Shown in pieces: positions 4,475 through 42,936 of a stretch of DNA of 64,000 nt; the stretch's first letter is position 1; each line of letters starts with the position of its first letter. The DNA is from Euglena gracilis (taxonomy: Eukaryota). The DNA lies in contig CP154954.1 in NCBI GenBank assembly GCA_039621445.1, forward strand, positions 23,386,954-23,450,953, written 5' to 3'. The notes under the pieces were generated by a model. It saw only the letters and a program-made list of their open reading frames with translations, did no database searches and was not told the origin of the DNA. The position numbers and the translations under genes are program-made.

Positions 4475-4485
4475 CTCCCCTTCCT
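4475..4485 (-). promoter_or_regulatory. Polypurine tract of element A
   Basis: Minus strand AGGAAGGGGAG directly precedes the 3' LTR. Confidence 0.85.
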
Positions 4486-5530: not shown

Positions 5531-5846
5531 TCCCCCCTTGGGTCCCCTTTCTTTCTCCTTTCCTCTCCTTCTTTGCTCGCCTCTCCCCGGGGCTTTCGCC
5601 CCCGTGCTTCGTCGCTCTCCTCTCCTCTCCTCTCTCTCTCCTCTCTGGGCTCTCTCCGGTCTCCCTTCTCCTGGCTCGGCCTCGGCCGGGCTCACCGTGG
5701 CTCAGCCTTGGTTGGGGAAGAGAAGGGAGGGGTGGCACACCAGTAAGAGGTTGGGTTGGTGGGTGAGAGCCTCCACAGTATCCATCAGGTCAGTAGGGGG
5801 TGAGCCAGCTGCCGCCGACATCACCGCATCTCCTCACGACGACAGC

Positions 5847-11800: not shown

Positions 11801-12452
11801 TCTTCGCCGGTGCTTTCTTCACCTCCTTCGCCGGTGCTTGTCTTTCTTGTGGTGGTGTCTTGTGGAGACTTGGTGATGCCTTCGGTGATGACGTTGTCGG
11901 TGTTGTTGATGGCGATGACGTCGATGCTGTCTTCGTTGCCGATGCCGTCGGCGTTGATGTGGTCGATGATGTCTTCGTTGCCGACGCCGTCGGCGTTGAT
12001 GAGGGCGATGATGTCACCTTCGCCTTCGGCACGCTCGGTGATGTTGATGGGGACGATGGTGTCGGCTTCGCCTTCGACACCTGCCGTAGGCAGGGTCTCT
12101 CCCCTTCCTTTGGAGACTTCCTGCCTCTTCTCTTTCTTTGGACCAGCCGCCATCCTTCTTCTTCATACTCCACCGCTCTTACCAGCCTCGTCCCTGGTGC
12201 GGATGTCAGCTGGGGGGTTGACTGCCGGTCCAGGCCCTTCCCCTTCACCTGGACGGCCCCGTCATTGCTGCGTCGATGTCGTCCCGGCCGCTTCTCCTTT
12301 GCCGGAACCTTTCTCGCCGCCTTTGCCTTTCCCCTTACCCTTGCCTTTGCCTTTTCCACCATCTTTCCCCTTGGCTTCGCCGCCTTTGCCGGTCCATCCT
12401 TCATTCCACGGCTGCTGGTTGCCTTTGCCTCGGCCAGCCCAGCCTTGGGCAT
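5847..12452 (-). CDS. pol: Pol polyprotein of element A: C5-MTase, aspartic protease, RT, RNase H, Pro/Ala-rich linker, integrase, chromodomain
   Basis: Uninterrupted 2201-aa ORF with LDLFSGTG/SPPC/ENP (MTase), LIDTGA (PR), WRLVCDY, DLRDAFHQ, YFDD (RT), TDASDYAVGAVL, TDH (RH), H..GH...C..C, SVDLF, SDRG, RAE (IN), WEVEAVV...FLVKWLGY..KTWEP (chromo). True start uncertain. Confidence 0.96.
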   Translation of the reverse strand: MPKAGLAEAKATSSRGMKDGPAKAAKPRGKMVEKAKARVRGKAKAARKVPAKEKRPGRHRRSNDGAVQVKGKGLDRQSTPQLTSAPGTRLVRAVEYEEEGWRLVQRKRRGRKSPKEGERPCLRQVSKAKPTPSSPSTSPSVPKAKVTSSPSSTPTASATKTSSTTSTPTASATKTASTSSPSTTPTTSSPKASPSLHKTPPQERQAPAKEVKKAPAKKEKKEPVKKAAKEEKERWALDLFSGTGSVRRALEKMGFKVISVDWDEKWKPDIVADVRKWRYWEQYAPGYFEVIAASPPCTEYSAALTTRKRRLRMADAVVKATRELVEYLAPTRWWIENPRFGLLRWRRVLRGVRYVDIDYCRFAEYGYRKPTRFWVSDAMAKELDDVICGGKCGSMVEGPDGVRRHRLQLGGSGGERRCTREEAYRIPEGVVRYLCLGEKAREEVAAAEEAKKVRKVVVRPWQHLPNRPFTVGRMEHRGGCYQLLMDVEVEAGGMKIQAKALIDTGAQTSLVKKELFPESVFHAATRPLVLRTVSGEALPGGQREAELKLSFAAQTDDEERRPRTWTTKVVAYDGCISTDLILGYPWLRENRLDVQPWRDTLQLHADPKWILRRRGDEEKKEEDGDEDEDELDGYLSTVKKMRQLTTDEAAVREVAMMLKEAEEAAKAVRGVVETEDDVDHPLARQLRDEIINEFEGRVFRERVWPCPPARGTHGKAVLRLKPGATPVVGRIINLKGERLEALREMERECLADGKLEAGRGPWRAAAFPIRKKSGKWRLVCDYSLTNKMLQMDSYPLPLTEDIVSEQAKCEIFSTVDLRDAFHQVAMAEESRPITNIHLPGGLWQWTVWPQGINVGPALLQRDIDATCRNVSAHTHPYFDDILVSTRRLPGWSDEELIRRHAGDLRETLRALEADRWVADKKKAQLFRKRAEFVGHVLGEGKRVPASGKLAAVQRWQPPANVTSLRAFLGLCNYYSGYVRMYSELAAPLQEKLKLPRDLSRAGSKHPIVWSAAELEAFEKLKAALVADLELWHVDMNKPFVLRTDASDYAVGAVLEQLPKVEGIPSVEELLKPGASVAVGFMSRKLTEGQRLRWDTSYKETYAVVSALDKWGGYITGQKVLVLTDHRSLESWYKEHVARGAGPQGRRARWHSKLNEHMVEVVYVPGEKNEVGDALSRWAYPASQEYRDSCWHGTAADAEEMEQQIREEKAAERSCPKAVHPVDKVCPLPTANAASPSSPAGTPAATAASAGTPASEVAPAGIPAAGSPAIRPPPPPHPTAPAATAAPTVRVPSATALASPGQPEQPQHPALSAQPKQQQQPATPRTVRFSVRPAAAPAAAPAVRSPSAEQASSPPAASARSILPSAAIAVTTRSQAVATPLVTVVPKKPAEGAVPSAGPPKVGGHPSPPAVPPVAAAVPPVAAAVPPAAATPAAAPQEEDQDLMAMDWSEAYEKCPTFKEPWQAIKRGRPWPTGYRKEAGKLVKDSVWCVPDALTERAIREQHRASGHVGGERLLDEASRNFQFAVPSRARELAGKILAVCEFCQASEHPHQPLRLRITPTPVPPHVMCSVSVDLFQMPEVEVEGGKLVNVFAACIDRHSGWAIATVHHTRGLTAEAVAKAMYEQWAQFGVPSVITSDRGPHFVGAWWRAMCARLGVRHAFSQAYHHEGNARAEVLGAQIQKRLRKMKAAEGVEWPEALPRALRTLHDSAGPSGLSPFQVLFGRERWYGGVPYQPPTRAEDAVAFFERMQDIDHRVAKILNEEHAKTAEAVNKRRKELPELEINDKVWYLRPRTRTGEKLETYWIGPCVVAERTSEHTYVLQMEDGRKQVAHRSQIKSYRHDPALMGPPLRLFHFRQSRPEEGSRLDEWEVEAVVTHRRDANGDLEFLVKWLGYEEKTWEPLRHFFHRYASPIVSYFVEHDIKEDIMKYLSRFPEEAHIAICHAVEIEKEKEKEFGLSWEEPPEEWMWQDPEDGDVCREGDDSAGDDDEGDGGDEGDRDQEDGGDVGPAGPQQAAHPRYPVRVHRQPASGKRPVSVRSASARDVLSRASLAPAPPSTTPSLPISHAYPPRSPGVPQRPGPRVSPAPTGRGRRPRVSTRRDAPARDPPLPPGGPVPVHPHDPSLRRGGTTTGGVPLHGHGATRPFLPNKEATPAPCPHPMGKWKRPGVNLGFSPWWSCSSSSFCSFPSPSTLRTGGWQRARRS
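11149..11750 (-). other. DNA cytosine-5 methyltransferase-like domain within pol of element A
   Basis: Motif I ALDLFSGTGS, II/III VISVDWD...VADV, IV AASPPCTEYS with the catalytic PC, VI WIENP, VIII-like YRKPTRFW, X-like RIPEGVV. Confidence 0.9.
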
Positions 12453-15126
12453 CGTTGGAGTCCTTGGTCTCGTCCACCTTCTTCGCTTCTCCTTCCTTTT
12501 CTTTCTTCACCGCTTCCTTCTTCACTTCCTTGATGTTGGACTCCTCCTGGACTCCTTGATTGGCCTTGGTGTCGGTCTCGTCATCTTCATCTTCGACATC
12601 CACTTCCCGCTGCCATCTTGTGGGTGCCGCCGGTTTGCGGTGGGCCGGCTCGGGGTCGCCCATGGTGGCGGCCCGCTGGTCCACCCTCAGCCACCGCACC
12701 ATGAGGTCGTTGACTTGGGTGGCGGTGAACTCCACGGTGTCCGGGGCCACCCGGACCTCCACCAGACAGCTTCTGCCGGTCGTACACCACCTTGATGGCC
12801 GCCCGGTGGTCATCGTCCGCCGAGACCACCTTGATTCTTCTGCCTTGACGATCCACTTTCTTCGGCACGACGCCCGTCTCCTCCACCACCATCTCCGTCG
12901 CCTCCGCCACCGTCACATCCTCCGGTAGGCCTTCCAGGACCAGCGCCGCGTGGTCACGGCGCCGATCCTCTTCATGGGCCAGCCGCTTCCTCCATGGCTG
13001 ACCCAGCTGGTCCACCACCAGGCGGGCTAGCTCCACGTCCGTCACCGATATGCATCGCTGGGGGGGGGGGGAGGGGGAGGGGGGGGGGCGGGGTGTGGGG
13101 GTGGGGTTGGGCGGGTGTGGGGGCTTGTGGGTACGGGGGGGGTGGAGGGGGGGGGGCTTTCTTTCTTTCGGGGGGGGGGGGGGTGGGGGGGGGGGGGGGG
13201 GGGGGGGGGGTGGGGGGGGGGGGCGGGGGGGGGGGGGGGGGACAGCGCCTTGGCGTTGGCGAAGTACTCCCGCCACTCGCGCTCCATCAGCTTGCCCCGC
13301 GTCACCACCTTGAGGTGACGGAGCTTCCTTCGTAGTGCTTCTCGGTCGTCTCCACCCAGCTCCAGGTCCAGCCTCGCCCACAGCTCCTCGAACGGCATCT
13401 CGGGGTAGGTCTCCACCATCAGGTCGATGTGCAACGCCGTCGCCTCGTCCACCGTACTCCGCAGCAGCGCCACCCACTGCGCCTCGCTGAGGAGGGGGAC
13501 CATCCCCTCCACCTCGCGGAGGTAGGGGAGCCACCGCCGCCTCCATTGGGGCCAGTCCTCGGCGTTACCCGAGAACCGGCCCGGATGCCTCCCCCCGAGC
13601 GCATCCAGGAGGTGCGGTGGCAGGATCTGCAGCTGGGGAGCCCCCAACGGCAGGGTGGTTGCTTGGACTTCTCGGATGGCGGTTCCCCTCACGGGTGCGG
13701 GCACGCTCGCCCCCGCACGCATGGGGGCGGCGGTGCTGGCGGGTCGCGATGCCGGTGCATATGGATGCGACGACAGTGCGGACTGCTGCACTTGCGCGCG
13801 GGACGGTTGCGGATGGGATGGTGCACGTTGGGCCGCGGAGGACGACGGTGGACGCTGGGACACGGACAGCGGCTCTGCTCGGATGACAGCGGTGCTCGGT
13901 CACCGGGGAAATGCATATGCGGATTGCGGCATGGATATCCCTTCCCTTGCCGGGCGCGCGGTGGTTGACGATGAGGACCGCTCAGCCGGGGCTCGGGCCG
14001 CCCCCGCCGAAGCAGGCTGGGGGGCAGACTGGCAGGGATCGGCTGCCCTTCGGGTTGGCGGCGTGGTCTGAGCCGCCGAGGACACCGGGGGTCCCCCGGC
14101 TTGGCGGAGACTGGACATCTTGACAGACCACTGCTTGATCTCCTCCTTCGCCATCTGAATCTCCCTGAACAGCGCCGTCACCACTTGGTCCACTTCCCGG
14201 AGGGCCTTCTCCAAGTACACCCTGCACTTGCCCTCCAACTCCACGGAAATCCGGTCGGCCAGCTTGTTGAAATACTGTACCTGCAACGCCGGGATCTCGG
14301 TCTTGGAGTTGAGCTCCATCCGCTGCAGTCGCTCCTCCATCTGCCGCACCACCGTGGCGATCTCCTCCCGCGTCACCATGGCTCCCCGGAGACGGGCCAC
14401 CTCCACTGCCGTTTCCGGGTCCACCACCCGGGCCGCACCCTCGCCGGGGCCGGCACGCACCATCGCCGTCAAGCCTTGCACCTCTGCCTCGCGGCATCGG
14501 TGCTCAGCCTGCACGGCGGCGATTGCTTGGGCCGCCTCATCCGCCGCCTTTCGGGCGGCCGCCTTGGCTTGCGCCACTTGGCCCTCGAGCCGTCCGTGCT
14601 GGGCTTGGATGGTCTCCATGAACTGCGCGATGACCTTGCCTTGCCCCTCCGCAACTTGCCGATAGGCCGCCGCGGACGCATCCTTCGTGGCCTTGATCTC
14701 CTTGTCCATCTCCTCCAGCGCCGCGGTTGGCCAGTCATCCCACATCTCCCGGGTGCGGTTGCCCAGGAGGTCGAGCTGGGCCACCACCTGCCCGAGACTC
14801 GCCTCCACGGCGTCGATGCGGCTCGTCAACCACACCGCCACCGCCTCCGACACCCCGGGATACTCGTCCTGCATGGGCTGGTCTTGTACCGGGACTTCAT
14901 CCCCGGCACCAATCTCCTCCTGGTACATCTCGGGGGCCATATCTTCCTCGTATCCCTCACCTGCGGGCTCCGCCTCGTCGTACATCTCGAGGGTCTGCTC
15001 GTACGTCTCCTCTGCCTGGTCATACTCCACACCCGCCGCGTCCTCGTCCATCTCATCCACAATCCTTGGCATCTTGAGCGGCCGGTGGGGCGATGAGGCT
15101 TCGGAAAAGGGGTTCGTTCCCCCCAC
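12262..15126 (-). CDS. gag: Gag-like region of element A, in several frames as assembled
   Basis: ORFs 13900..15126 (acidic N-terminus, coiled-coil-like), 13042..13863 (FSGNAEDWPQWRRRW, capsid-like and resembling WDGDPTTWRQFFRDW in element B gag) and 12262..12813 (GK-rich tail). Disrupted by a G-run stretch at about 13055-13240. Confidence 0.7.
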
Positions 15127-15686
15127 ACCCTTTGATCCCCCTTGCGGCTCCCTCTGGGGGTGGTGGTGGGGGAGAACAGCAGCGCCGCTCCCGCCGCGGC
15201 CAGCAGCGGGAAGCGGGCCCGCAGCGGCGTGGCGTCCCGCGGGGACTCCAGCTCCGGCAGCTGGAGCGGCACCAGCGCGAACGCCGCCGCGGTCGCCGCC
15301 GCGGACGCCGCCGCGGACCCCCCCGGGGACGGCGTGGCTGCTGGGGTGGTGCGCAGGGAGTGGGACAGGTACGAGGGTGGGGATGGGGTGGACAGGATGG
15401 GAAATGTGAGCTGGAGTGGGAATGGGAGCTGGGGGTTTGGGCTTATCGCCTTTTCTTGAGCGGGGCTAGGTGGGGAAATGGGGGATTCTTTTTCTGCTGT
15501 GCACGCTGAGGGGGACTGAGCAGCGGCATGCGTGTGCGGGGGATTGGGATTGGGTATGGGGCGGTCTTTTTCATTTGGGGGAGTCCCATGGTGGGGGACA
15601 CCCACCACCGGGGCGGGGTGAGCCTGGGGAGCCGGATCCATCTTGTCGGTGTGATTTGTTCCCAGGAAATTTTGTTCTGTGAAAAA

Positions 15687-15698
15687 CCTCTGCTACCA
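15687..15698 (-). promoter_or_regulatory. Primer-binding site complementary to initiator tRNA-Met, overlapping the LTR by 1 nt
   Basis: Minus strand TGGTAGCAGAGG directly after the 5' LTR; complementary to the ...CCUCUGCUACCA 3' end found in many eukaryotic tRNA-iMet. Confidence 0.88.
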
Positions 15699-16336
15699 GT
15701 TTCCCGAATGGTGTTGTTTTTGCCCAGCCTTCACTCCCGGGGGTCCGTGAGGGGGTACCGGCGGGGTGGGGGGTAGGCGCGATGGGCTCTGGGGAGAGGG
15801 GTAGGTTCGGGATACTCCCCTTCCCACGTAGGATTTTTTCCCGGGGACCGAAGGCCCTCCTTTTTGGGGAGTGGTTGGAGGGGGGAGTCCGGCTTGGCGT
15901 CCCTTCCGGCAGTGGGGGGGTTTAGGAAAAGGCCTGGTTAGCCTCCCCTAGGCTTCAGATACCCCAGCACCAACACCTTTTTGGCTTGTACTGCTCTCCT
16001 GCGCCAGCAGATAGCCAATCTTTTTTGTAATCTTTTGCTTGCTCCGCCCTTGGGATTTTGATTTTCTTGAACTTTTGCACTTTCTTGGCTCCAGTGCCTT
16101 TCCTTGAATTCCCTTGAAATTCCTTGAAAATTGATATAATTTGACCTTGGTCTTGATTCAGCAGGCACAATCTTGAATTGAAACCATAGATAAGAAAGAG
16201 GGAGCCTGCAGTAAAAAACAGAACAGTTAGAGAGCGGTTTGCGCTATTTTGATGCTGAATTAGCGCAGTGGTTCGCTATATACAACAGCAGGCTGTAATA
16301 GTGGCAATAGAAGGTGCAGCGGCCGGTCCGCCAACT
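15698..16336 (-). repeat. 5' LTR of element A (639 bp)
   Basis: Direct repeat of 3835-4474. Confidence 0.97.
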
Positions 16337-24170: not shown

Positions 24171-24615
24171 CTAAGGGCAAGAAAGGTCGCGTAGATCTCC
24201 AAACGGAAGTAACGGTCCAGATCTCCACACAACATGTCAGATCTTTTGTACGATGTCCGCTGAGCTGCCCCGTACTGCAAGGTTCGTATCAGTGTGTACC
24301 AGGCGTATGCTTCTGTCCCCTTCCGTTGAGGAAGTTAGGATCGAAGCAGATCCTATTAGGATCTCCTAATGGGTGCCCCTTCTCTCTCCACAGGTGGTAT
24401 TCTTTTATATTCTTCTTTATACCTTTTCCTTCCTTTCCCTCGGACCGGACTTGGTTATCCAGTCCGTCCTCCCTGCATTGCCCTGTGCTTTGCTTCTTGG
24501 GAAGTGGGAAAAGGGATTTTCTGTTACTCTGATTTTCAGTTCCCAAGTAGGTGCGCCAAGGCGAAAGCGAAGGCTTTTGGGAATTGGGAAAGGGGAATTG
24601 GGAATCAGACGTACA
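24170..24615 (+). repeat. 5' LTR of element B (5'-truncated)
   Basis: Ends in CA two nt before a PBS; 24293-24615 is homologous to the reverse complement of sequences starting at 39010 and 42937 (CCACAGGTGGTATTC, AAGTAGGT.CGC, TGTGTACCAGGC). Confidence 0.75.
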
Positions 24616-24778
24616 CTTGGTAGCAGATTGGTTACGATCCTATACATACTTCACAGAAAGAAAGGCTACCAGGTATTACACTTGGTAGCAGATTAGGTCA
24701 CGATCCTACACATACAGCCCGTTTAGAAAGAAACGCTACCAGGTATTACACTTGGTAGCAGATTGGTTCGATCCTACG
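24612..24778 (+). promoter_or_regulatory. Three tandem tRNA-iMet primer-binding-site units
   Basis: TACACTTGGTAGCAGATT...CGATCCTA occurs three times, with TGG at 24618, 24683 and 24753. Confidence 0.85.
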
Positions 24779-24966
24779 CTGACTGGCAGCGGAGGGCCCC
24801 TGCACCGTTTATACACGGTCGCAGCGTCAGCTCCCGGCTTCTAGTCAACGTCTAAGCAGACGAGCAGGCTCCGGAAGGCTCTGTACGGTATTACCTGTTA
24901 CAACCCTTCTGGTGCCAGCACAACTGCTTAGTTTTGTGGGTTTTTGCTGTTTTTGTCATCAGAAAG

Positions 24967-27900
24967 ATGCAAAGCACAGGCCCCAACCATCAATTCAATT
25001 ATGCCTTATTACAGGCATCATTGCAAGACATTGACCAAGAAAATGGGGATTGGAAGCTTTTATGTGAAAGTGCTTCCAGTTCCCACGCCGATGAGGCACA
25101 ATTGGTTCAATTGTCACAATTGCAACACTTGTCATCATTGACAGTGGTCGGCGATGAGCCCTCCACATCATTGGCTTCAGAGGCTAATGCGGCCTCTTCC
25201 GCACTCACCTTGCCACAACGGGGGTATTCGCCTCTGTCTGCGGCAATGGTGCAGCTGCGCACACCGGAGAGACCCGTGGTGATTCCGCCACTGGGCTTCT
25301 CTGGTGATGGTGGGCTGGAAACCCCGTGTTTCTTTCAACCACCACCCGTTCTTCCACCGGCAAGCCCTTACAGAGCTTTGCCACCACCACCCGATCTTGG
25401 GTGCTATCCCGCACTACCTTGGCAACCGGAGACTCGCCTAGTGGTACCAGAATTCTCTGGTACGTCCCAACCCATGGATGGCTATGGGAAGAGCACTGGG
25501 GAGCTCCTCACTGCTGAGGATGTACAGGATATGGTTGCTCGGCTTCCAGGGGATCACCCCCTTGTGAGGCAGTTCAACCATGTGCAACAATGCGTTGCAG
25601 ATTGTGCAACCGCACTCAACAAAGTGCTCCAGTTTGATGAGGACAACCAAAAACATGTCTTCACCAAGCTGGAATACTGCTGGAATTACTTGCAGGAAGT
25701 TGGCAAATATTGCCAGAGGAATTTCGAAAGTGCGGGTATTGACCTTGCAAACTTTCGGGAAACCTTTGACAAAATGTGCCAACAACTCCCGCAAAACTTC
25801 CGGCAAATTGGTGAATGCATGCATGAAGCGGAAACCCGGAATGACTCCAAGTTTCTGCACTTGCATGACTCACTACAATATTTATCGGGACAAATGGAGT
25901 CCTTTTTATCCGCGTTGTCGCATTTGCAACAACAGTTGCATGCACGAGATTCCTCGTCTGCAACATCCAGCAGTGGTGGACTTGTGTCTATGGACCATTT
26001 CACCACATTGTCCGCAACTTTCCATGAATCGCAACACCGCATTATGCAGTTGTGCGATGAAACGGAAAAGTTTCGGCAATTTCAGTCACAAGCCAACGAG
26101 AATTTTGCTCCCCACACGTATCTGCGGCAGTTGGAGGAGCGACTTTCCTGTTTGGAGCAGAAAACCTGGTATTGTGACGCACATCGGGTTGGTTTATCCA
26201 ATCTGAGCGCGAAAGTCGCGGAAGTAGCACAACGGCAGGATTCCCTGCAGTTGCAGTTGCAATCCGACATTGGCGGGATTAACTCGGCCATTGCGGGGTT
26301 GCAACAAAGCTATTCCGCACCTTCCCACCGAGTTCCGGACATTAGCGGTATTCAGACTGCTATTGGGGAACTCCAGACCCGGTATGCATCGGTGTCTACC
26401 AAAGTAACGGAAATGCAGTCTCTACCTGCAGGTTCCAGGACCCAGATTACCGAGAACCCTGATTTCAAGGCATTTTATGACAACATGCTCACTAACAATC
26501 GGGAAACCTTGCAAGATTTCTGCAACAGCCTATTACGGCTTGAGGAATCGGTGAATCGGAATGCCCGATCCACGCAAGGTGAGATTACCAGGTTGGATGA
26601 GCGAATTTCCGCGTTGTTGGATAAGCCACAATTCGGAAATTTGCCCGTGGGTACCACAACCGCGTTGTCGGATAACCCTGCACCGGTTGCACCCACCCCC
26701 ACACCAACCAAGACATCACCTTTGCAGATTCTCTCAAATGCTGTAAAAGCATTAATGGGACAACTCCAATTATTGCGTAAGTCTCACGGGAAACTTGTCC
26801 AAGATGTTACCGGAATTTCCGAAAGGATTCTGCACTTGGATGACCTTTCCCGTTACCGCAAGCGTATTCGCGCTTTGGAGGATGAAGTTGACCGTATTTG
26901 CGGCCAACTCCAACTCGTTGAGCATTTGGAGCAAAGTGTGCATGACGTGACTGTGGGTTTGGATAATGTGTCCAACCAACAGCGGGTTTCACACCGCAAT
27001 TCGGCAGTATGCATTGCCGAAGATGCGCCAAATGTTCCAGAGTCGCGTTTCCATAACCCGGCTCTGGGTGCACATGCACCACCACCACCCGTTTCCCGAG
27101 TGTCACAATCCGCGATTCCGCGAACTGTGCCACCATTGGCCTTGTTCACAACACAAACCCAGTTTTCGGATGAATTTCCCATTACGGGAACCGAATTTTC
27201 GGAAAACACGGCGATTCTGCCAAGTCTCCACCAAGAAATCCATCATTCCATGCTTGTGCGTGGAATGAGCCAAACCCGTACACCGGGAGTTGGTCACATG
27301 TTCCATGCGCGACATACCCCCACACCGGAGAGTCCCCCTACTACGGGTGACCAACAGGGTTTGCGACCGGATTTCCGGTACCAGGATTCACCCTCACCAG
27401 AAATTTCGCGATTCCGACAAGAATCCGGAAAGGATACGCTTGGTGCTCGAGCGTACCCAGGCCCAAAACCGCGGAATACCACCGAGGGTCATTGGGTTTC
27501 TCAGAAAGACTTCAAGGGCACCATCGCAATCGCGAATAAGGTGAAACCCCAATGGGACGGTGATCCAACCACATGGAGACAGTTTTTCCGGGACTGGGAG
27601 TATTACTGGGCATTGAAAGGTCCAACCCAGGACACAAACACGGAGGTGATCAAGATGGAATTCATCGATTGCCTCCCTAGGGATGAGAAGGAGCGCGCGC
27701 GACAACTTGTCATTCGCTACCGCGTTTCCTTTGATGACCTGGTAGAGCAATACGCTTCCACCAGTTCAAGTTTGGTCGCTAGGATTACCCTGGAGACCAA
27801 GTGGCGGCAATGCGCCCCACCCGATCGGAAGTGGAAGTCCATTGACCTTTGGTATGCCAAATGGTTAGGACTTGCCGCTGAAGTGGATGAACTCAGTGAA

Positions 27901-28731
27901 AAGCAAATGCGCGAACAGTTTGATGCTGTTCTCATGCATTTCACGCCTAGCCTCATCAAGGATATCCACCGTGAGGAGTTGGCGAGTCACTCATTGACTC
28001 TTGACCAACGCTGGAACTACGTTTCTAAGCAATTGAAGCTCTCACAGCTTCTTGGTCAGATTCAATCCGCGTATAACGCACACCCAACCGCTGGAATACC
28101 GGCTGGTTCGGTGAACGCATTGCAAAAATCACCGGTTTCACCCACTTCACCAACCACGGGATCGAAAACGCGATACCCGCGTTCTTCGGACCAAGCCACG
28201 AATAAAGTGTGCTTTTTGTGCAACAAATCGGGACATATGTCTCGGGAATGTCCTAATCCTGAAGTGCGTAAGCGTATTCAGAGTCCGCGAGGCTCGACCT
28301 CATCACGGGGTTCGGGTTCCTCCGCGTTTTCACGCCAATCGGGCAATTCACGGTCATCGGGTCCCCGTTCCGGTGGTATTAGCCCCCGGATCCCGTTCCG
28401 CGATGAGCGGAAACACGGTACCCCTCGGGGTAGGTCACCCGGTGCCCCGGCCAAGAAGCGTGATTCTCATCGCGAGACATCGCGATCGCGTTCGCGAAGC
28501 GGATCATCCTCTTCGCGATCCTCATCGGGAAAACCCCGGTACACCGGTCATGGTCGACGGGATATCCGGTCACCACGACGGTTTGACGGGAAATCGGGAA
28601 ACCGATCCCCCCGTTACCCAGAATCGCGACACAAATCTCGGTGTTCGCTTTGTGGATCACCACTCATCCAAATGTCCGCGTTCTCGTTCTCCCCTCCCTG
28701 GCCAACGTCATCGCGGTATGAATCGCGGTGA
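24967..28731 (+). CDS. gag: Gag of element B (coiled-coil-like N-terminus, capsid-like region, CCHC zinc knuckle, RS-rich tail)
   Basis: ORF 24934..28731, first ATG at 24967; CFLCNKSGHMSREC; PQWDGDPTTWRQFFRDW. Confidence 0.85.
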   Translation: MQSTGPNHQFNYALLQASLQDIDQENGDWKLLCESASSSHADEAQLVQLSQLQHLSSLTVVGDEPSTSLASEANAASSALTLPQRGYSPLSAAMVQLRTPERPVVIPPLGFSGDGGLETPCFFQPPPVLPPASPYRALPPPPDLGCYPALPWQPETRLVVPEFSGTSQPMDGYGKSTGELLTAEDVQDMVARLPGDHPLVRQFNHVQQCVADCATALNKVLQFDEDNQKHVFTKLEYCWNYLQEVGKYCQRNFESAGIDLANFRETFDKMCQQLPQNFRQIGECMHEAETRNDSKFLHLHDSLQYLSGQMESFLSALSHLQQQLHARDSSSATSSSGGLVSMDHFTTLSATFHESQHRIMQLCDETEKFRQFQSQANENFAPHTYLRQLEERLSCLEQKTWYCDAHRVGLSNLSAKVAEVAQRQDSLQLQLQSDIGGINSAIAGLQQSYSAPSHRVPDISGIQTAIGELQTRYASVSTKVTEMQSLPAGSRTQITENPDFKAFYDNMLTNNRETLQDFCNSLLRLEESVNRNARSTQGEITRLDERISALLDKPQFGNLPVGTTTALSDNPAPVAPTPTPTKTSPLQILSNAVKALMGQLQLLRKSHGKLVQDVTGISERILHLDDLSRYRKRIRALEDEVDRICGQLQLVEHLEQSVHDVTVGLDNVSNQQRVSHRNSAVCIAEDAPNVPESRFHNPALGAHAPPPPVSRVSQSAIPRTVPPLALFTTQTQFSDEFPITGTEFSENTAILPSLHQEIHHSMLVRGMSQTRTPGVGHMFHARHTPTPESPPTTGDQQGLRPDFRYQDSPSPEISRFRQESGKDTLGARAYPGPKPRNTTEGHWVSQKDFKGTIAIANKVKPQWDGDPTTWRQFFRDWEYYWALKGPTQDTNTEVIKMEFIDCLPRDEKERARQLVIRYRVSFDDLVEQYASTSSSLVARITLETKWRQCAPPDRKWKSIDLWYAKWLGLAAEVDELSEKQMREQFDAVLMHFTPSLIKDIHREELASHSLTLDQRWNYVSKQLKLSQLLGQIQSAYNAHPTAGIPAGSVNALQKSPVSPTSPTTGSKTRYPRSSDQATNKVCFLCNKSGHMSRECPNPEVRKRIQSPRGSTSSRGSGSSAFSRQSGNSRSSGPRSGGISPRIPFRDERKHGTPRGRSPGAPAKKRDSHRETSRSRSRSGSSSSRSSSGKPRYTGHGRRDIRSPRRFDGKSGNRSPRYPESRHKSRCSLCGSPLIQMSAFSFSPPWPTSSRYESR

Positions 28732-28978
28732 CAAGGGTCACTCCTCCAACCGCCATAAAGTCGGTTTCAAGATATCTTGTTTGGAGGATGACACCCCGGC
28801 TTCGGGCAGGGAGGGGGATGAGACCACGGATACCGACTTCGATGAGGCCCGCATGGCGGTGCGCACGTTGAAATCTGTTTATAGCTCTAAAAGGCCCATA
28901 GCCGGCTATTCGGCCGGTTCGTACCTGGAGTAGGGGAGCCCGAGGTCCGAGGGCACGGACCTCTGGGCTGATGAACAG

Positions 28979-31900
28979 ATGGAGGTAGGACCTGATCAAC
29001 CCTGCCCCCCCTGCCCATCTGCCTTTCTGGTCGGTACCTGGAAAATGTTCGGGTCCCCCACCCCCCACTCCAACTTTCCGCTCGGAATGTTGTGCAAAGT
29101 AGGAAAGGGTTCATGGGAAAGCTGGCAAGAAAATATATTTTCGCCAGACCCTTCACTTTGCTTACCACCCATGGAACTTTTGGTCCAAGCGGAAATCAGA
29201 ATCCAAAACTTTTGTGCAAAAGTCAAAATTCTCATTGACACTGGTTGTCGCATTGCACTACTTTTTTGGTTCGGGTTGATACCAACCCCCCTCTTGGTGA
29301 AAGCCAAGAAGCCGATCAAAATTACGACGGCAGACAACACCCCCATGTGCAGTGGTGACTTGGGATGCTTTTTGGACATTGTCCTACCCCTCATCCCCAA
29401 GCACCACTCACACCCCCCCCAACCGCAAAATTTTCCGGATACCTGGGGATACGAATCTGGAATCCATGGTTCTGACGTAATTCTGGGATACCCCTTTTTA
29501 CGTCAGCACCGGCTGGTAGTGGATTGCCACTCCCACGGTTTGCGCACATCACCATTCTCTTCATTGTCCCCCAAACCTTCATCACAGGTGGCGTCAACCG
29601 CGACGACCACCAATTTTTCCACACCGTTTTCAAAAACTTTTACCCCGTTACCAACCACACCAACCAACGTTTTCCACACCGGGTGTACCGAGAAAGTTCA
29701 CCCCCTGCCCATTGACACACCAACTTCCGTTCCCCATGAGGCAGGGCAAGCGAGTAGCGGTACCCCCCTCGTTCCACTGTGTTACAAGACGAAAGCCCAA
29801 AGGCCTGAAGTTATAACGGTGTCGAGTAGTCGCCCAGCTGCACTAATACCCCGTTTTCCACCAGATGTATCGCTTTCAGATACATCTGTACACCCCCCAG
29901 CAGCTACAAAAGCGCATCCCAACTTTTACACACACCCTCACCAGACCAACATGCGCGACCAGGACACTTCCTTCCAATGTGTGCACTGTAGGAGAATTTC
30001 CGCCCAGCCAGATTTCGATTGTGGATGTCTAGTCCAAACACCAACACTAATCCCGATTTCGCGTAACCATACACTTGGTTGCGGTTCGCAATGCACGACC
30101 GTACATCAAGTGCTCCAACAACGAGGTATTGCCTTGTTGTTTGGGACCGCGAAATCCGTGTCACACACCTCCCCCACCTCCATCTGGCATGATATGGACT
30201 GGGTATGCACCCATCCAAACCATCAACCCTTGGGAATGCCCCTAGGGAGTGTGGATGACACACCCTTGACCTATGTTTGCGGATCCCTAAATTGCGTCAC
30301 CAGTCTTCAACCCGCGAACCAGGTCAATAGATACGCGATGCGCGTATGGAACGCATTTAATTTTGGTCAATATCATATTTTGGAGGGATGGTTCTCCAAA
30401 ATCGCGGTTTTGGCTGATTCCTTCGATTTGTCGTTGGAAATTGATGCGGTTTCATCAAAAGCGCATGCGCGCTTGTCGCGATATTGGTCGCGACATTCCA
30501 ACGCGTTTCAAAATTTTGGGGTGATACGGTGCTCTGGATGCACCCTCCCCCAAAACTTATCCCGGATGTGGTGGAGAAAATCCTCCGCAATGAAGCGCGA
30601 GGAGCTCTCCTCATACCCGTCAATCCGAATGCGGATTGGTTTCACCAACTATCCGATGTGTGTTTTCAGTGGTGCGATTTACCCGCTGATGTACCACTTT
30701 TTGAGGATTTTTGTGGTATATTATTACCACCTGTAAAAGAAATCATTTTTCGCGTTTGTTTCTTCGACGCATTCGGAATATCCGATGTGCGTGTGCCAAG
30801 ATGCCTTGGTACCAATGGGGATGCCACACCCTCAACGCAGATTTCTGCGGTCATTGAGAGTGCGGACCAACACCCCAAGTCTGCTGACTATTGTTCGCGA
30901 ATTACTCGCGAATTTCATGGTGTACTGGATAACCCAGTATACGCCTGTGACATCGACCCCGCGATTCGCGGTCCGTTCGGTGTTTGCAAAATCGAGCTCA
31001 AGGATGGCGCTAAACCCATGCACCGGAAATTCCTCCGTTGTTCGGGTGAACGCGAACAGGCTCTCAACGAGATGATTGAGAAGCTCATCCAGCGGAACTG
31101 AATTATCCCTTCCAAGAGCGAATGGACATCACAAGCTTTTGTGGTGCCCAAACCCGCTGACCAGTCTGGTCAGAAGAAGTGGAGACTAGTGCTGGATTAC
31201 CGGTACCTGAACTCCCAAACGAAGGATGACCCCTTCCCGTTACCGCTGATCGAGGATTTGATCACCAAACAATTGGATAACCGGTTGTGGTCAATATTTG
31301 ATCTGGAAGACGGTTTCCATCAGATGCATTTGCATCCTGATTCGCAACCATACACGGCATTCGTGACATCCAAGGGTGTGTACCAATGGACGGTACTCCC
31401 CATGGGTGTTAAGAATGGCCCAGCCATGTTTCAACGCATGATCCAGTGGGTTTTGCGCGATTTACCGTTTGCTCTGGTGTACATCGATGATGTACTGGTG
31501 GGAACCCAACTGCCATCCGCGAAATCGGGCGAGGATATCCTCGACCCGCATTATCGCGATGTGCGCGCGGTTTTATCCGCGTTCCAAAAGCACGTGCTTT
31601 TTGTGAAGGGTTCCAAAATGCACCTGTTTTGCAAAATTATTAAGTTTTGCGGGCATATCCTGAACAACGGGCAGCGTAAAGCCGCACCCAGTAAGATGGG
31701 GGCCATTAAGAAATGGACTCCTGAGGTCATTAAGACCTTAACGCATTTAAAGGGATCCTTTTGGGTTAGCCCAATATTACGCGATTTACATGAAAGATTT
31801 CGCGAAAATCGCGGTACCCCTAACCCGACAACTCAAAAATCGGACACCCGATAACGCAAAAGTCATTTGGGATGACCAAATGCGCGAGGCCTTGAATAAA

Positions 31901-34046
31901 ATCAAGGACTTGCTGCTCGAGAACGTGGTTCTCGATATCGCGGATCCATATAAACCGTATGTCCTGGAGGTCGACAGCAGCGATTACGCTGTTGGCGGAG
32001 TTCTTAGCCAGCATAATGCGGCGAATGAACTCCGACCTGTGGCTTTCTTCAGCAGGAAGCTACAGGACGAAAACGGGAAAGGACAGGTTAAATGGAGCAT
32101 TCGCGAAAAGGAGACATGTGCCATTGTGCTTTTTCTCCAGAAATTCCGCAGCTGGATAGCCAGCAGCTTGGTCCAGATACTCGTATTGACGGATCATGAG
32201 AGCCTTCAACACTGGTATACCGAGGACCTAAACAAGGCCATGTCATCAGTGGGCAGAAGATGCCGATGGCATGAGTTCTTGAGCCAGTTTAACCTGGTGG
32301 TTATCTATACCCCAGGTCACACGCAAGAAGTAGCGGATCCTCTCAGCCGAGCCCCCTGGTATTATCCTGGGAACGCGGATGAGGGTGATGCGACTTTTCA
32401 TGGCAGCCATGAGGCTGACCAGTTCGCACGTCGATCCGACGCTGCGGACAACATGCTCGATTCACTACCCGTTTCCCGGGGGTATCGCAGCATCGCCATT
32501 TCACCATTGCGTGGAAGGCGCCGGCGTGGACGCACTGCCGGACCCCGTCGCAGTACGCGTACGGAAACTCCTACCCCCCTATTTTTCCGCGAATGGGATT
32601 ATTCGCGTGACCCTATATATAGTACCATTGTGAACAGACTTCGTAATGGTGAATCCATGAGAATTCCTCTCTATCACCATTGCGGCTTATTTTCCTTAAT
32701 GATTCTGGTTATAAATATTGTATACCCCAAGACCTGGTTGATGATGTGATTTTGAGCTATCACAACCATGGTCACCCTGGGGCCCCCAAACTTCTTTCAC
32801 TGGTGGGTCGCAGATATTGCACAACCCTGAGTGAAAAAGAATTATTTTCGCGCTGTTTGCGAATTTCGCAAAGGTGCCAAATTTGTCAGGCTGTAAAACC
32901 GCGCAGAGGTACCCCCCCTGGTACGATGGACTTTTTCACCGTACCACCAGACATCTTTACGTCCCTCTGCATGGATTTTCTCGAACTTGAACCTTGCAAA
33001 GGATCAGATGACAAAATTTACGATTACGTTTTTGTTGTCGTCTGTCGGCTGAGTGAGTACATAGTAGCCATTCCATGCCGGAAAGCAGGGTTGACAGCCC
33101 AAATTTTGGCATCCATATTCCTGGAGAAATGTATCTGCTTAATGGGTTTACCGAACGAAATCGTGAGTGATCAAGATCACTTGATCTCTTCGCGGTTCTT
33201 CACAACTTTGTGCGGTTTACTCGGCATTGAGCAGCATTTTTCCATTATATACCGCCCGAAAGGCAATGGTAGAGCCGAGGCAGCCGTGAAATCCGTTGTC
33301 AATATGTTTCGCCTTTCACTGCTGACTCGGGTAAGAATTGGTTATCCGTTCTTCATTGGTGTTTATTTTACATCAATACCTTGCCATGGTTGGTATTACC
33401 ACACTCACCGTACAAAATTGTTTTCGGACGAGACCCTCCGGCCATAGGGGATATCCCCTCGGAGAGATCCGCCCGAAGTAGCGTCAGCTGTGAAGCGTGG
33501 TTTGCAGAAGTGGAATCACTCCGCTCTGCAGTCCAATCACGTATCACAGAAAATCATTCCAACAAACGGAAATCGTTTTTACAAAACATCAACACACCTG
33601 TGTATAGTCCAGGTGACCGCGTGTGGGTACGGAATAACCGCACCCGCATGCAATCTTCCAAGCTAGATCCTCTTTGGCTCGGCCCATGCGAAATCTTGGA
33701 GAGGTTAGGTAGTAGCGGGCGATATAAAGTTGCCGTGCCCAACGGGATTGAGGACGTCCATATGGACGACTTCAAACCGTACCTAAGCCCCCCAGACGGA
33801 AAAGCTATCCCCTGCCTGTATTTCCAGCCCCGTTCCAGATTACCTGAAACGGACGACTTTGTGGTCGATAAGATAATAGACCACAAGGTCGACAGGGGTG
33901 TGCACTACTGGAAAGTTCGCTGGAAAGGGTATGGGCCAGAGGAGGACACTTGGGAACCAGCATCCAGTTTTGTTGGATATATCCAGCAGGATTGGAAGCT
34001 GTGGAACAAGCGCAACAACATAGACATAAACATAAACACTTTCTGA
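28979..34046 (+). pseudogene. pol: Pol of element B: PR, insert, adenine MTase, RT, RNase H, integrase, chromodomain; frameshifted
   Basis: ILIDTG (28979..30736); WRLVLDYRYLN, DLEDGFHQ, YIDD (31141..31854); DSSDYAVGGVL, TDH (31790..32749); HNHGH..CQIC, MDF, SDQD, RAE (32680..33447); [10 protein letters not shown]...[16 protein letters not shown] (33381..34046). TGA at 31099 and at least four frame changes. Confidence 0.93.
30360..30770 (+). other. DIRS-type (phage Dam-like) N6-adenine methyltransferase domain within pol of element B
   Basis: EIDAVSSKAHARLSRYWS..SNAF, frameshift near 30510, then W....LWMHPPPKLIPDVVEKI....ARGALLIP......WFHQL. This matches the D.FAS..N.....Y.S / DAF...W / xPP..LI..V+.KI / ..+.P.W....W pattern. 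Confidence 0.8.
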
Positions 34047-34243: not shown

Positions 34244-37200
34244 ATGCTGCCGGGGCGCGGACCTGGACCAGGTCCACCATGGCCACAGCCTTCTGGCGCG
34301 CCATACCCCCAGTACCCTCAGTATGCTGAGGCCCCGATTCCAGGTGCCCCACATGCTGAGAGGGTTTCAGCCCCGGTATTCGCCACGGCTACTAGCAGCC
34401 GGTCCGCATATGCGGTGCCAGATGCACCTGCCGTCCAGCAGCCGGCACCTCAGCCACCAGCGCAGCGCAGATCGCGCCTGCCCCCGTATGCAGGAGAGAT
34501 GATCTTCCGCACTACGGAGACGTTGGAGCGGGCGATGCGTATGTGCGCACACCCCCCAACGGAGCCCTTTATGCAAGCCCTTTGGGATGCATACTGTGCT
34601 CAGTTGTTGGTGGTAGCCAACACCCGGTGGCTCAGTGGTGTCCCTGTGGTCAAGCCCTGATGACGGGGAGACGGTATTTCTCGTCGGCATCCGATTCCGG
34701 ATTCGAGCCTGGCGAGACAATGATGGACCTGGGCGTGTATGTGCCGCCCATGCTGCAAACGCAGACGCCGGTGGGATCCCACACCGTGCATATGTGTGAG
34801 CACACGCCCCCACCGGTAGGTGAACCTGTGCATGTCCCACCTGGGATGACGAGAATTTTTGCTCGCCCGCCCTCGCCGCAGCGAATGCCGCCGCGCGAGC
34901 CGCCAGCGGAGCAATTTGTCTCGCAGTACGCGACGCACGCACGCGGATTACCCGCGCGGCGCACGCGTGCTCCCAGCTGGACAGTCGGACGTGCCCCCTG
35001 AGGCATACGTCCAACACATGTTCATGCACTGGATGCCACAGGCATTACCGGTTGCCCCTGTCCCTGGCGTTGAGCCACGGCGACAGGTGGAGCCCATAGT
35101 GGTGGAGGATGAACCTCCCCACCGTGTGCCAGCCCGACCGCCCAGTGCAGCCCCTGTCCAGACTGGGGATATTCCCCGTCGGCAGGAAACTCCCTACTAT
35201 TACATGGCACCTCCGGGAACCGAGCAGGATGAGCTTGCTCGGCACTTCCTGCAGGAGCCAGCACTCGCGTCTGAAGAGCACCGGTCGAGGTATTACGCCT
35301 CTCTGGCTGCCCTTCAGGGCCGTGGATACACCCCCTACCATCCGTACCAGCCGCAGCTGCGGGTGGCAACCCCGGTATTACCCGGTGAGCCCCCGGCAGG
35401 TGTGGCAGTATTACCTGCCACCCTGAAGCGCGACAGGACTACGGAGAACCTTACCCCACAGCCCAGGCGACCCAGCCCACGGGACGCGGAAGGCGGTGTG
35501 GCAATGCAGGTGGAAGCCAGCCAGGATACCCCGACTGGACGACCACCGGCAGAGGCACAGGTGGCGATGAGCCGTCCTGTTGCCGCTATGCCACCGCCGA
35601 TCCCTCCGGTATGGAAGGAGCCGCGACCCCCTGCGTCGAAGCCAAGCCCACGCCAGACTCCTAGCCAGCGCCCAGCCACGCCATCACCACGACGTGCAGC
35701 GGAGCGGCCAGGTCCCTCCCAGGAGATGGAATTGGAAGGAACCGAACCGACTCCGGCGGCACCGAGCGCCCGACCCTCTGGTATTCGCCAGACGGGAAAG
35801 GACACAGGCAAGGCCGAGGGCAAAGGCAAGGGAGAAGGCAAAGGCGTGGCCGTCAAAGGGAAGGGTGAGGGTAAAGGTAAGGGAACAGCACGTGAGGAGG
35901 AAGAGGAACCAGCTGAAGTCCTCTCGGACTTTGAGCATATGCTCAGGTTCAAGGAGGAGCTGGAGGACGAAGGCTGGCGAATGCAGCATGATTACCATGT
36001 TGCAGGAAACCGCCCCGTCACCCCTCCACAAGCAGTCATCGATGTGGTATTACGCCACACCGAGAACAGAGTCAGACTGTTCCATTACGGAATAGATCTG
36101 TACGCCATCGAAGGTGAAGGTGGCAGACCCTTGCTGGATGCCCAGCCTGGTTTCTGGGAGCTCTGGTTTTGGCTGGGATACCCCTGCCAGAACTGGGGTC
36201 TCTTCAGCGACTCCACTGGTCGCAGTTACCTGCACCAGTTGGGATTTCGGGACCAGCGTGTGTTGGCCCGAAGGCTGAAGGCAATCTTCGACTGTATTCA
36301 TACAGTCGGACCCCTCGGTGTGCAGTGGGAAATCTACCCACTACACCCTGACATCGAACGCCTGATCGAGGTGTTGTGGTGCAACAACCTCCAGGTGTGG
36401 CTGGTGAGCCATTACGGCTCCACCTTCCGCGTTAAGCGTGTTTCCCTGGCTTACCCGCAGAGGTATGACCTCTGCTGTAAGTACTGCCGGCAGGAATTTC
36501 CTGTCGAGTTCTGGGGATTCGGCGTGCGCGGAAGTCCTCCACCGCCTCGTGATAACCCGGGCGTGGAGATGGGACGCCGCATGCTTATGCATGTGTGCCG
36601 CGACGCCCCGGATGTCCAGGGCAAAAGTCGCCGCGTCCACAAGCAGCGTATTTTTATGCTGCAGCAGTTCTGGTGGCGAGCCTGGACCACCTATGTCATG
36701 GAGGTGTATATACATCTCCGTGACCCCCAGGACGATAGGCCTGGTATGGAAAGCCTGCCACCGGATTACGGTGACGCCATCGAGGGTCCTCGTCGTCGGA
36801 TTCTCGGCCACCTGCGCCCCAACTGGCACCTGGCTGATATCAGCCTGCAGGAACATTTGCGGCGACAGTTTGGCGGTACCCTCGACCGGGAGGTATTCCT
36901 TCCGCTGATGTGTCACCCGGAGGCCATCCTCGAACAGCGTATGCCGATTCTGGCATGCGTTCAGGAGTTCGAGGAGGGCTTTTTCGAGGTCTGGGAAGAC
37001 ACGCGTTACCGCGGCTTCCTGGGCCCGAACAGGCCTGCCAACGCCTGGGTGCAGCCATCATGGCCGCCACCCTGGCCCAACAGCGCCAGCAGCAGTACGC
37101 TGGCCTTTTACAGGCTGGCGGATGCCCAGGGATGCCGATGGCACCCCGACGATCCTCGTTCGCCCGAGGATCTGCGCGCCTTCATCGCCCCAGAGGATGA

Positions 37201-39009: not shown

Positions 39010-40070
39010 TGTACGTCCAAGGACTTCCCTTTGACCCCTTTTGTCCCGGAAAAGCCTGTTTTGCTTTCTCCTGGTGCGCACCTACTTAGGTGAATAAAAA
39101 TCCTTGGAGTAACAAAGCCCTTTTCCCCAATTCCCCTATGCTAAGGCAGAGCACAAGGCAAGTCGCTGTGTAAGGATTTTCCTTCACAGTCGTGTTCAGT
39201 CCTTTCAGAGGTTTATCCTCTTACTTCAAAACAGTCAAAATGTGAAGAATAGAATAAGGAATACCACCTGTGGGGGAAGGAGAGAAAAGTGCTGACGTGT
39301 CCAGGGGCAGATCCCGGAAGGGTCTGCCACGATCCTACCAGCTGTGGTTTTCCACAGTGGTGCGACCGTCACAGAACCCACTCTGCAGATATCCTACAGA
39401 GCTGGGACGTGCCTGGTACACATCCCCCTCCCAGGGCTACGCCCGATTTCCTTCATGGACCAGGGATTCCCAGGTCCAGTCAGGATATCTGACGCTTCCC
39501 CGTTGAGGTTCACTACTACTCCATTCGGTGTCTCTCCTTTCCGCACAGTGGCATCCACCCAAATCCCAAAAACGCGCAAAAGGTTAGCCGCGTTTCGCGG
39601 TTACCTATTAGCCGTTTAGGCTAAGGTGGGGTGTGAAAAAGCCCACTGTAGGATACGGGGCTGGGCAGGTTTCATGACAAAGTGTCCCATCCACCCACTT
39701 TGGGTGTGCCAAAGGCAGGCGGGGTTGGTCAAGCGTATTCGCTGAAAACCCGAGGGGAGAGGTGTGGAAGGGGGGGGGCAGGCTCCTATCCTGGTAATAC
39801 CCGGATAGGGCTCCTAGGCGGTCATATCCGCACTAGGAAACAAAAGCCTACTTACAAAACCGACTGCCGGCGACAGCTTTGCGGGGGTGGGGGGAAAGTA
39901 GGGAGGAGAGGGGGGCTGGCTTACGCCAGAACAGAATTTTTGCTGTCTGGCAGCCTTAAGGGGCCTTAGGGACGAAAAGTGACAACTTGGCCTATTATTA
40001 TGGCGTGCGCGCTGTGTGCTGTGTGTCACTTAGCGGCTTGCCAGGTTTCCCGGCTGCCAAGGTCTTCACA
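39010..40070 (-). repeat. Diverged LTR of the element-B family in reverse orientation
   Basis: Begins TGTACGTC (reverse complement of the LTR end GACGTACA); shares blocks with 42937 onward (CGCCTGGTACACATCCCCCTCCCAGGGC-like, CCCATCCACCCA.TTTGGGTGTGCCAAAGGCA, CTGCCGGCGACAGC). Right end approximate. Confidence 0.7.
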
Positions 40071-42929: not shown

Positions 42930-42936
42930 CCAGCAG

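Follow-up and report, generated by a model that had tools for sequence, protein, structure and literature searches.

The DNA considered here is a stretch of 64,000 nucleotides from Euglena gracilis (assembly GCA_039621445.1, contig CP154954.1, positions 23,386,954 to 23,450,953 of the forward strand), which we call the window and in which positions are counted from the first letter. At 24293-34046 it carries an element that, as judged from its sequence, is a Ty3/gypsy chromovirus with broken pol frames. The subject of this work is the region where the 5' long terminal repeat (LTR) of this chromovirus passes into the leader: a unit composed of the LTR end (TACACT) and a primer binding site (PBS) of the initiator-tRNA type is present there in three tandem copies at 24612-24778, with periods of 65 and 70 nt. 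An initial annotation, made from the letters of the sequence, had described this triplication, and both the sequence and Tandem Repeats Finder agree with it (24612-24777, period 70, 2.5 copies, 85% matches, 8% indels, score 227). The parts of the array can be read directly from the sequence; anti-PBS designates the inverted copy that stands ahead of each inner PBS:

24612-24676, plus strand: unit 1, 65 nt
24618-24640, plus strand: PBS1, bipartite, consisting of TGGTAGCAGA (24618-24627), two T and the T-arm box GGTTACGATCC (24630-24640); abuts the LTR
24641-24664, plus strand: spacer of unit 1, in the variable part of the unit; contains the purine run AGAAAGAAAGG
24665-24674, plus strand: anti-PBS 1, GCTACCAGGT, an inverted copy of ACTTGGTAGC
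24677-24746, plus strand: unit 2, 70 nt
24677-24706, plus strand: head of unit 2, with TACACT (24677-24682), PBS2 TGGTAGCAGA (24683-24692) and the T-arm box GGTCACGATCC (24696-24706)
24735-24744, plus strand: anti-PBS 2, GCTACCAGGT; other copies have linked variants at positions 24739 and 24742
24747 onward, plus strand: unit 3, followed by the unique leader
24747-24774, plus strand: head of unit 3, with TACACT (24747-24752), PBS3 TGGTAGCAGA (24753-24762) and the T-arm box GGTTCGATCC (24765-24774)

Read from 5' to 3', the order is ...CAGACGTACACT, TGGTAGCAGATTGGTTACGATCC, a 24-nt spacer, GCTACCAGGTAT, TACACT-TGGTAGCAGATT..., a second spacer, GCTACCAGGTAT again, the third TACACT-TGGTAGCAGATTGGTTCGATCC and finally unique sequence. 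The 10-mer TGGTAGCAGA occurs four times in the 64-kb window, three times in the array and once as the PBS of another LTR element (15689-15698, minus strand); by chance 0.08 occurrences are expected, and none of 100 shuffles reached four or more. The motif GCTACCA is found at 24665-24671 and 24735-24741, in each case 11 nt ahead of PBS2 or PBS3. The arms of the GCTACCA-N11-TGGTAGC hairpins that had been proposed at the second and third copies are indeed present, but the complementarity covers 10 nt rather than 7: an inverted-repeat scan pairs GCTACCAGGT with ACTTGGTAGC over 10 nt at 90%, the two arms being 5 nt apart, and this pairing extends 3 nt into the LTR-end copy. The 25-nt piece at each unit boundary, GCTACCAGGTATTACACTTGGTAGC, is 80% self-complementary. 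In the same kind of scan, each anti-PBS is complementary to the PBS on both of its sides, upstream as well as downstream.

What is the source of the GCTACCA motif? In the initial annotation it was taken as a built-in mimic of a tRNA 3' end. Since the pairing runs 3 nt past the part that is complementary to the tRNA, an inverted copy of the LTR end and the PBS is the simpler explanation, and the boundary palindrome points to such a copy of the element's own sequence, arisen during reverse transcription. A different origin would make the segment between the PBS copies a relic of failed reverse transcription, for instance the junction of an LTR-LTR circle: this 'mini-LTR' would be made up of a copy of the tRNA primer, a purine tract and a fusion of the two LTR termini (the first ~12 nt and the last 6 nt), so that GCTACCA would derive from the LTR start and the hairpin would be a by-product. 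The tail of the unit does have TACCAGG and then TAT, the LTR start being TGTGTACCAGGCGTAT, and it follows the purine run AGAAAGAAAGG just as the LTR follows GGGAGGGGGA. In local alignment, between 33 and 189 of 3000 shuffled tails scored as high, as did 92 and 109 of 3000 pieces taken at random from the window, and in a separate test the score was reached by 63-181 of 2000 shuffles. However, this also means that about 1-9% of the controls do as well; moreover, the two reference LTRs give different best alignments, the exact word in common is just 7 nt long, and the commoner variant at 24739/24742 is less similar to the LTR start and still pairs with the PBS. We therefore regard the 'mini-LTR' origin as quite improbable.

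With respect to the primer, the PBS of the chromovirus begins with the TGG signature, and its first 10 nt recur in the PBS of a second LTR element, which is unrelated and lies on the minus strand (~3838-16099) with TGGTAGCAGAGG directly after its LTR. The primer tRNA of the host therefore most likely ends in the complement of at least TGGTAGCAGA, which we take to be a 3' end of the initiator-tRNA type, as in many eukaryotes. The earlier assignment of the PBS to this type is supported by the shared 10-mer and by the T-arm box that follows each 10-mer of the array after 2-3 letters. This downstream box had been described as complementary to the T arm of the initiator tRNA; scored against the 11-mer quoted in the initial annotation rather than against the tRNA of the host itself, a near-match is present in all units, but each is imperfect: the box has one substitution in unit 1 and two in unit 2, and in unit 3 GGTTCGATCC matches 10 of 11 letters, with one T missing. 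The variable place in the boxes presumably sits opposite tRNA positions 58-59 (in tRNA numbering). In eukaryotic initiator tRNAs, methylation of position 58 prevents it from pairing, and variation at exactly these positions fits a real contact with the T arm. A contiguous copy of the tRNA would have two more letters between the two boxes; the PBS therefore has the form of a bipartite site with a small loop, the layout known from Ty1. The 64-kb window itself contains no tRNA gene and no Rfam match at gathering scores.

The T-arm boxes also bear on the idea that the element primes itself, with the anti-PBS folding onto a PBS and being cut after GCTACCA, so that the new 3' end instead of a tRNA primes the minus strand. 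The first 7 nt of every PBS are exactly complementary to GCTACCA, and if this motif pairs with the upstream PBS1, an end after GCTACCA would start copying at 24617, the LTR end. We nevertheless consider self-priming highly improbable. First, a PBS complement in the LTR of the kind used by Tf1 and Tj1 is absent: the longest stretch in the LTR complementary to the 14 nt that follow it is 5 nt long, and 926 of 1000 shuffled LTRs do as well. Second, the T-arm box in all three PBS copies makes sense for a tRNA primer only. Third, the pairing extends 3 nt into the LTR-end copy. Finally, the genomic RNA would be split by such a cut, and loss of the upstream unit would be expected in the progeny, yet two- and three-unit forms persist. 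The link to the self-priming of Tf1 and sushi that had been drawn initially is thus not borne out, as the LTR lacks the PBS complement and the T-arm boxes indicate a tRNA primer. We also considered TAGGATCG at 24337-24344, an 8-nt stretch of the LTR with complementarity to a portion of the PBS box; it was rejected because almost all other copies (101 contigs) have G and not C at 24342, so that the match is private to the copy in the window.

The array is a trait of the family. A 1-kb stretch around it is present in 20 of 24 listed public sequencing runs, from 17 studies. Contigs of four runs were aligned at a likeness of at least 80%: 7398 from X1 (organism label A), seven from X16 (label B), 16 from X17 (label C) and 12 from X20 (a leaf-litter RNA library); the number of matching contigs in X1 indicates that the chromovirus family is very abundant. 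In X16, a 582-nt contig passes from LTR position 24611 directly to 24677 and continues to 25104, which corresponds to a two-unit form 2+3, and the depth over the bin of the unit 1 body is 0 in this run. In X20, a 716-nt contig joins 24664 to 24735, giving the two-unit form 1+3, and the depth is 0 in the bin 24676-24709. X17 has one contig in which the LTR leads into a PBS of the unit 2 type, another in which unit 1 leads into a PBS of the unit 3 type, and a third that bridges units 2 and 3. Accordingly, at least two PBS copies with an anti-PBS between them are the normal state of the family, a shared layout rather than a one-off. Two units are found in most of the forms seen and three in the window copy, and the first unit of the array falls into two types that have diverged from each other; recombination between the 1+3 and 2+3 forms could have produced the three-unit form. 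Two contigs of X1 suggest rare forms in which the LTR leads straight into unit 3, although the exact 30-nt repeat is where such contigs break. The contig from the RNA library X20 spans the LTR from its very first base, U3 included; we do not count it as evidence of transcription.

These copies also decide against a slippage duplication or assembly artefact limited to the window copy, which we regard as hardly credible. The three-unit form has been seen in the window only, and short-read contigs break at the 30-nt repeat; but single contigs join the two-unit forms with the anti-PBS in X16 and X20, the same arrangement is bridged in X17, and these runs come from other studies and carry other labels. 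Moreover, an alignment of units 1 and 2 has differences in 11 of its 70 columns, and the duplication is therefore old. A single PBS and no GCTACCA in other copies, the outcome that the initial annotation had named as speaking against its proposal, is not what the copies in X16, X17 and X20 have: they retain at least two PBS copies and the anti-PBS. Of the conserved hairpin with covariation that it had suggested looking for, the array and the anti-PBS are kept and two-sided compensatory changes are not seen.

Exact scans with the 18-nt word spanning the LTR end and the PBS returned five metagenome loci and five loci in prokaryote genomes, all of them single chance matches without wider likeness; viral contigs gave no hit in this word scan and nothing in a protein-guided scan. 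One metagenome contig (L004, 3277-3335, minus strand) has a purine-rich, LTR-like end, TACACT and one copy of TGGTAGCAGATTTG. At the protein level it does not resemble the chromovirus, and it may be an unrelated element that shares the primer.

The position of the LTR end is seen directly in run X1, in which, among the matches listed, 40 contigs diverge before 24293 and 29 after 24617; the LTR ends are therefore fixed at these positions. In the same run, the depth of the LTR bins is about double that of the bins in the units and the leader (rough depths), as would be expected of units that are internal, present once per element, and not part of the LTR.

How would three PBS copies behave in one RNA? 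The predicted RNA hairpins of anti-PBS 1 with PBS2 (-15.3 kcal/mol, z -5.9) and of anti-PBS 2 with PBS3 (-15.4 kcal/mol, z -6.4) are more stable than any of 200 shuffles, and the 205-nt array as RNA reaches -61.8 kcal/mol (z -3.4). The hairpins form with a predicted probability of 0.88-0.99 in three contexts of 201, 301 and 521 nt, the PBS3 hairpin with 0.99, and the first 7 nt of PBS2 are paired with a probability of about 0.9-1.0. The mean unpaired probability of the 10-mer falls from 0.36-0.44 in PBS1 to 0.21-0.25 in PBS2 and 0.13-0.15 in PBS3. According to these predictions, local hairpins cover PBS2 and PBS3, PBS1 is more open, and the PBS-occluding hairpins proposed in the initial annotation find support in these models for the two inner sites. 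On the minus strand, the corresponding DNA hairpins reach -6.2 and -6.5 kcal/mol (z -4.1 and -5.4); they are weaker because the G.U pair of the RNA turns into a mismatch. In an isolated unit, the anti-PBS is predicted to fold onto the upstream PBS instead, with -17.8 and -17.6 kcal/mol; in the three longer contexts, this upstream register has a probability of 0.00-0.11. For two RNA copies of a 35-mer, an extended duplex is predicted at -33.4 kcal/mol as compared to -30.6 kcal/mol for two hairpins.

The sequence variation is distributed unevenly. Between units 1 and 2, none of the 30 columns of the core differ, as compared to 11 of the other 40 (Fisher p = 0.0016); the core is made up of the LTR end, the first 12 nt of the PBS and the anti-PBS, and the other 40 columns include the T-arm box. 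Two changes in the second anti-PBS, C>T at 24739 and G>A at 24742, recur among other copies, largely in the same contigs: X1 has 26 contigs with C>T and 27 with G>A, which account for about two thirds and slightly more than half of the depth, respectively; both are present in all covering contigs of X16 and X17, and neither is present in X20. C>T converts a G-C pair to G.U and G>A converts a G.U pair to A-U, so that the stem keeps nine Watson-Crick pairs and one wobble. C>T at 24739 takes the GCTACCA motif further away from the tRNA 3' end, with a wobble pair being kept. The linked variants fit an RNA stem; they are compatible with it and no proof of it, and the two sites are not mutual partners.

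It is tempting to speculate that the anti-PBS/PBS modules are an element of the leader RNA that is maintained by selection, and two versions of this idea can be distinguished. In a register switch, the anti-PBS copies, being one fewer than the PBS copies, would leave the first PBS open if they pair downstream and the last if they pair upstream. In a dimer linkage, the palindrome would join two genomic RNAs, and the PBS copies would merely be its building material. Both ideas agree with the unchanged core, with the persistence of the layout in runs with three organism labels, and with an imperfect pair that is G.U on the plus-strand RNA and a mismatch on the minus-strand DNA (-15.3 vs -6.2 kcal/mol); with both linked changes, C>T and G>A, the RNA strand once more has a single wobble pair. 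The switch finds an argument in the existence of both pairing registers, the upstream one in the isolated unit, and the dimer linkage in the predicted extended duplex. On the other hand, all of this support is predicted, the upstream register has a low probability in the longer contexts, a predicted dimer is to be expected of any palindromic hairpin, compensatory double changes are not seen, and a fast-expanding family could persist in its layout without selection. Taken together, we consider a selected leader element unlikely. The same degree of doubt applies to the modules as a working RNA device, be it a register switch that gates reverse transcription or shields the element from silencing by tRNA fragments, a linker of genomes or, as the boldest version, a downstream self-primer. 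To our knowledge, such a downstream geometry of the self-primer is not known from Tf1.

The explanation that we favour, and to which we give about an even chance of being correct, is that PBS1 is the working site, that the inner copies are masked by the inverted copy of the LTR end and PBS, and that template switching alters the number of units. The proposed sequence of events has three parts: (i) The primer tRNA would anneal to PBS1, which abuts the LTR, with 10 nt pairing to the 3' end and the second box pairing to the T arm, in a Ty1-like manner. Minus-strand synthesis would begin there, and a start at PBS1 would account for the end of the LTR at 24617. (ii) The 10-bp hairpins with the anti-PBS would hold PBS2 and PBS3 shut and exclude the tRNA from these inner sites. 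The weaker hairpin in the minus-strand DNA may likewise keep the plus-strand strong-stop DNA off the inner sites. (iii) A reverse transcriptase that switches templates out of register at the identical 30-nt core would give rise to the forms 1+3, 2+3 and 1+2+3. We infer the use of PBS1, the formation of the hairpins and their masking effect, as well as the origin and the size changes of the array.

Several points weigh against this explanation. The folding results are predictions throughout. The identity of the 30-nt core could reflect recombination rather than selection. In the contigs compared, no pair has changed on both sides, the variants at 24739 and 24742 keep pairing by wobble, and six of ten possible transitions in the anti-PBS arm would retain pairing anyway. 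The assignment of the primer to the initiator tRNA is based on the PBS of the second element and on the T-arm motif of the initial annotation. The three-unit form is that of the window copy only, and X1 may be the sample of the window itself; contig depths cannot count copies, and those of X1 are compatible with many three-unit copies. Finally, the LTR end at 24617 is derived from the listed divergences, and LTRs that end after unit 1 or unit 2, as would result from priming at an inner PBS, may occur beyond these.

The chromovirus that carries the array has the following parts:

24293-24617, plus strand: 5' LTR, ~325 nt, starting with TGTGTACC and ending with GTACACT
24967-28731, plus strand: gag-like open reading frame, ATG at 24967, very long, coiled-coil-like, zinc knuckle near the end
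31102-34046, plus strand: pol in broken frames, with reverse transcriptase (31102-31854), RNase H (31751-32749) and integrase (32653-33447)
33273-34046, plus strand: SH3-like domain (SH3_Tf2-1) and chromodomain, after the integrase

The gag-like open frame comprises 1291 codons and found no relatives among 8000 scored candidates. In pol, the Pfam domains RVT_1 (E-value 1.2e-27), RT_RNaseH_2 (2.2e-25), rve (2.8e-08, together with Integrase_H2C2) and Chromo (1.2e-10) were recognized, and their order, reverse transcriptase, RNase H, integrase and then the chromodomain, is that of a Ty3/gypsy chromovirus. For the reverse transcriptase, 156 of 1040 database candidates are relatives at an E-value of at most 0.001; the best of them are 75-89% identical, lie on metagenome contigs and carry the same set of domains. 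The copy in the window has neither a 3' LTR nor a purine tract within the window, and unrelated sequence follows the chromodomain. A blastn comparison of 24293-24617 identified a related LTR at 43233-42935 on the minus strand with 75% identity. Two related LTRs, at 39036-39445 and 42935-43245 (minus strand), are preceded by the purine run GGGAGGGGGA and start with TGTGTACC; both end with ACACT, after which unrelated sequence other than a PBS follows. Because of the GGGAGGGGGA tract in front and the ACACT end, they are 3' LTRs or LTR relics, diverged and of the same superfamily.

The LTR has some additional features. A 17-nt palindrome, AGATCCTATTAGGATCT, is located at 24348-24364 and recurs in the 75%-identical LTR near 43170 on the minus strand; it could be a binding site for a protein or an RNA stem, and its position 24363 is altered in about half of the X1 depth. 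A long imperfect hairpin at 24518-24604 lies near the 3' end of the LTR just before PBS1 and may be a U5 stem. This hairpin is a sub-threshold look-alike of a microRNA precursor (22.9 bits, with the gathering score at 63); when 24500-24900 was scanned against Rfam with lax settings, two sub-threshold look-alikes and nothing else came up.

The whole window resembles a nest of mobile elements, and no host gene was recognized among the frames scanned. The second LTR element (3838-16099, minus strand) is Ty3/gypsy-like, unrelated to the chromovirus, and has an open frame of 2219 codons at 5847-12506; its LTRs share an identical stretch of 300 nt (3855-4154 and 15717-16016), and it looks young. It has a single PBS, TGGTAGCAGAGG at 15687-15698, without an array or an anti-PBS. 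Directly after the truncated chromovirus lies an open frame of 1125 codons (34850-38227) without a Pfam match, the end of which is repeated in inverted orientation with 84% identity (37405-38300 / 45298-44416), probably as part of another unclassified repeat. Between the two related LTRs there is a frame of 889 codons (40323-42992), again without a Pfam match. Satellite arrays with a 91-nt period occupy 1-1013 (8-10 copies, up to 99% identity) and 45321-46139 (7 copies), and long G/C homopolymer runs and simple repeats of the CA/GCAC type are found at 13040-13270, 50700-50840, 54980-56000 and 58390-59000.

Where the primer tRNA is placed determines the end of the LTR, a choice that is passed on to each copy of a retroelement. 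A natural and very successful family with two or three equivalent PBS copies, each with an LTR terminus and a mask, would be a ready system for studying how reverse transcriptase and nucleocapsid protein choose a site, and it would also be suited to asking how the mis-landing of plus-strand strong-stop DNA is avoided and how leader repeats expand and contract. If the modules are a switch or a dimer linkage, they would represent a new kind of leader element for Ty3/gypsy elements; if they are a masked relic only, they are a tidy curiosity of template switching. Our survey of the literature on repeated or tandem PBS in LTR elements found no such array, a weakly supported negative since 'PBS' also stands for phosphate-buffered saline and most subscription journals lay outside the survey. 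Bipartite and hairpin-buried PBS, distant double PBS and self-priming are already known, whereas for a natural tandem array of full PBS modules, each with the LTR terminus, and with an inverted mask, we found no description.

The closest parallels concern single aspects of the array. In Ty1, the PBS for the initiator tRNA is bipartite, with the complement of the 3' end and then a T-arm box across a small loop (PMC5371799, PMC1635307). Each of the three units corresponds to this, with a putative complement of the 3' end after an LTR terminus and a T-arm-like box; unlike in Ty1, which is a copia-type element with one PBS, the bipartite PBS is tandemly repeated together with the LTR terminus, and the inner copies have an inverted partner. 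In Ty3, the second segment of the PBS is located in U3, about 4.8 kb away (PMC5371799).

In Tf1 and Tj1, the self-primer is the 5' end of the transcript, which lies within the LTR and is complementary to the PBS (PMC4600332, PMC5006619). The chromovirus studied here shares with Tf1, Tj1 and sushi the membership in the chromodomain-containing Ty3/gypsy elements and a piece of its own RNA that pairs with the PBS (PMC4600332, PMC6317226). It differs in that the PBS of Tf1 and sushi matches no tRNA, whereas here the PBS is of the tRNA type with a T-arm box and the LTR provides no complement; in addition, the complementary stretch is located downstream of PBS1, between the PBS copies.

In HTLV-1, the single working PBS is locked in a stable hairpin that blocks annealing of the primer and that host factors open (PMC13366004). 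Here, too, nucleotides of the PBS are part of a local, in our case predicted, hairpin, but the predicted hairpins cover the extra inner PBS copies only, and PBS1 next to the LTR is more open. Gypsy of Drosophila and Ty3 of yeast have two PBS, 5' and 3', that bind different parts of the tRNA at opposite ends of the RNA (PMC1635307). These elements and the chromovirus have in common more than one tRNA-binding site per genomic RNA; in the array, by contrast, the sites are nearly identical, lie 65-70 nt apart and are all complementary to one part of the tRNA.

So far, site choice, mis-landing and leader repeats have mostly been studied in vectors engineered to have two PBS. Voronin and Pathak (J Virol 2004) reportedly used engineered retroviral vectors with two PBS and observed frequent initiation at both. 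As in these vectors, equivalent PBS copies are present on one RNA in the chromovirus, but its array is natural and comes with a masking inverted repeat.

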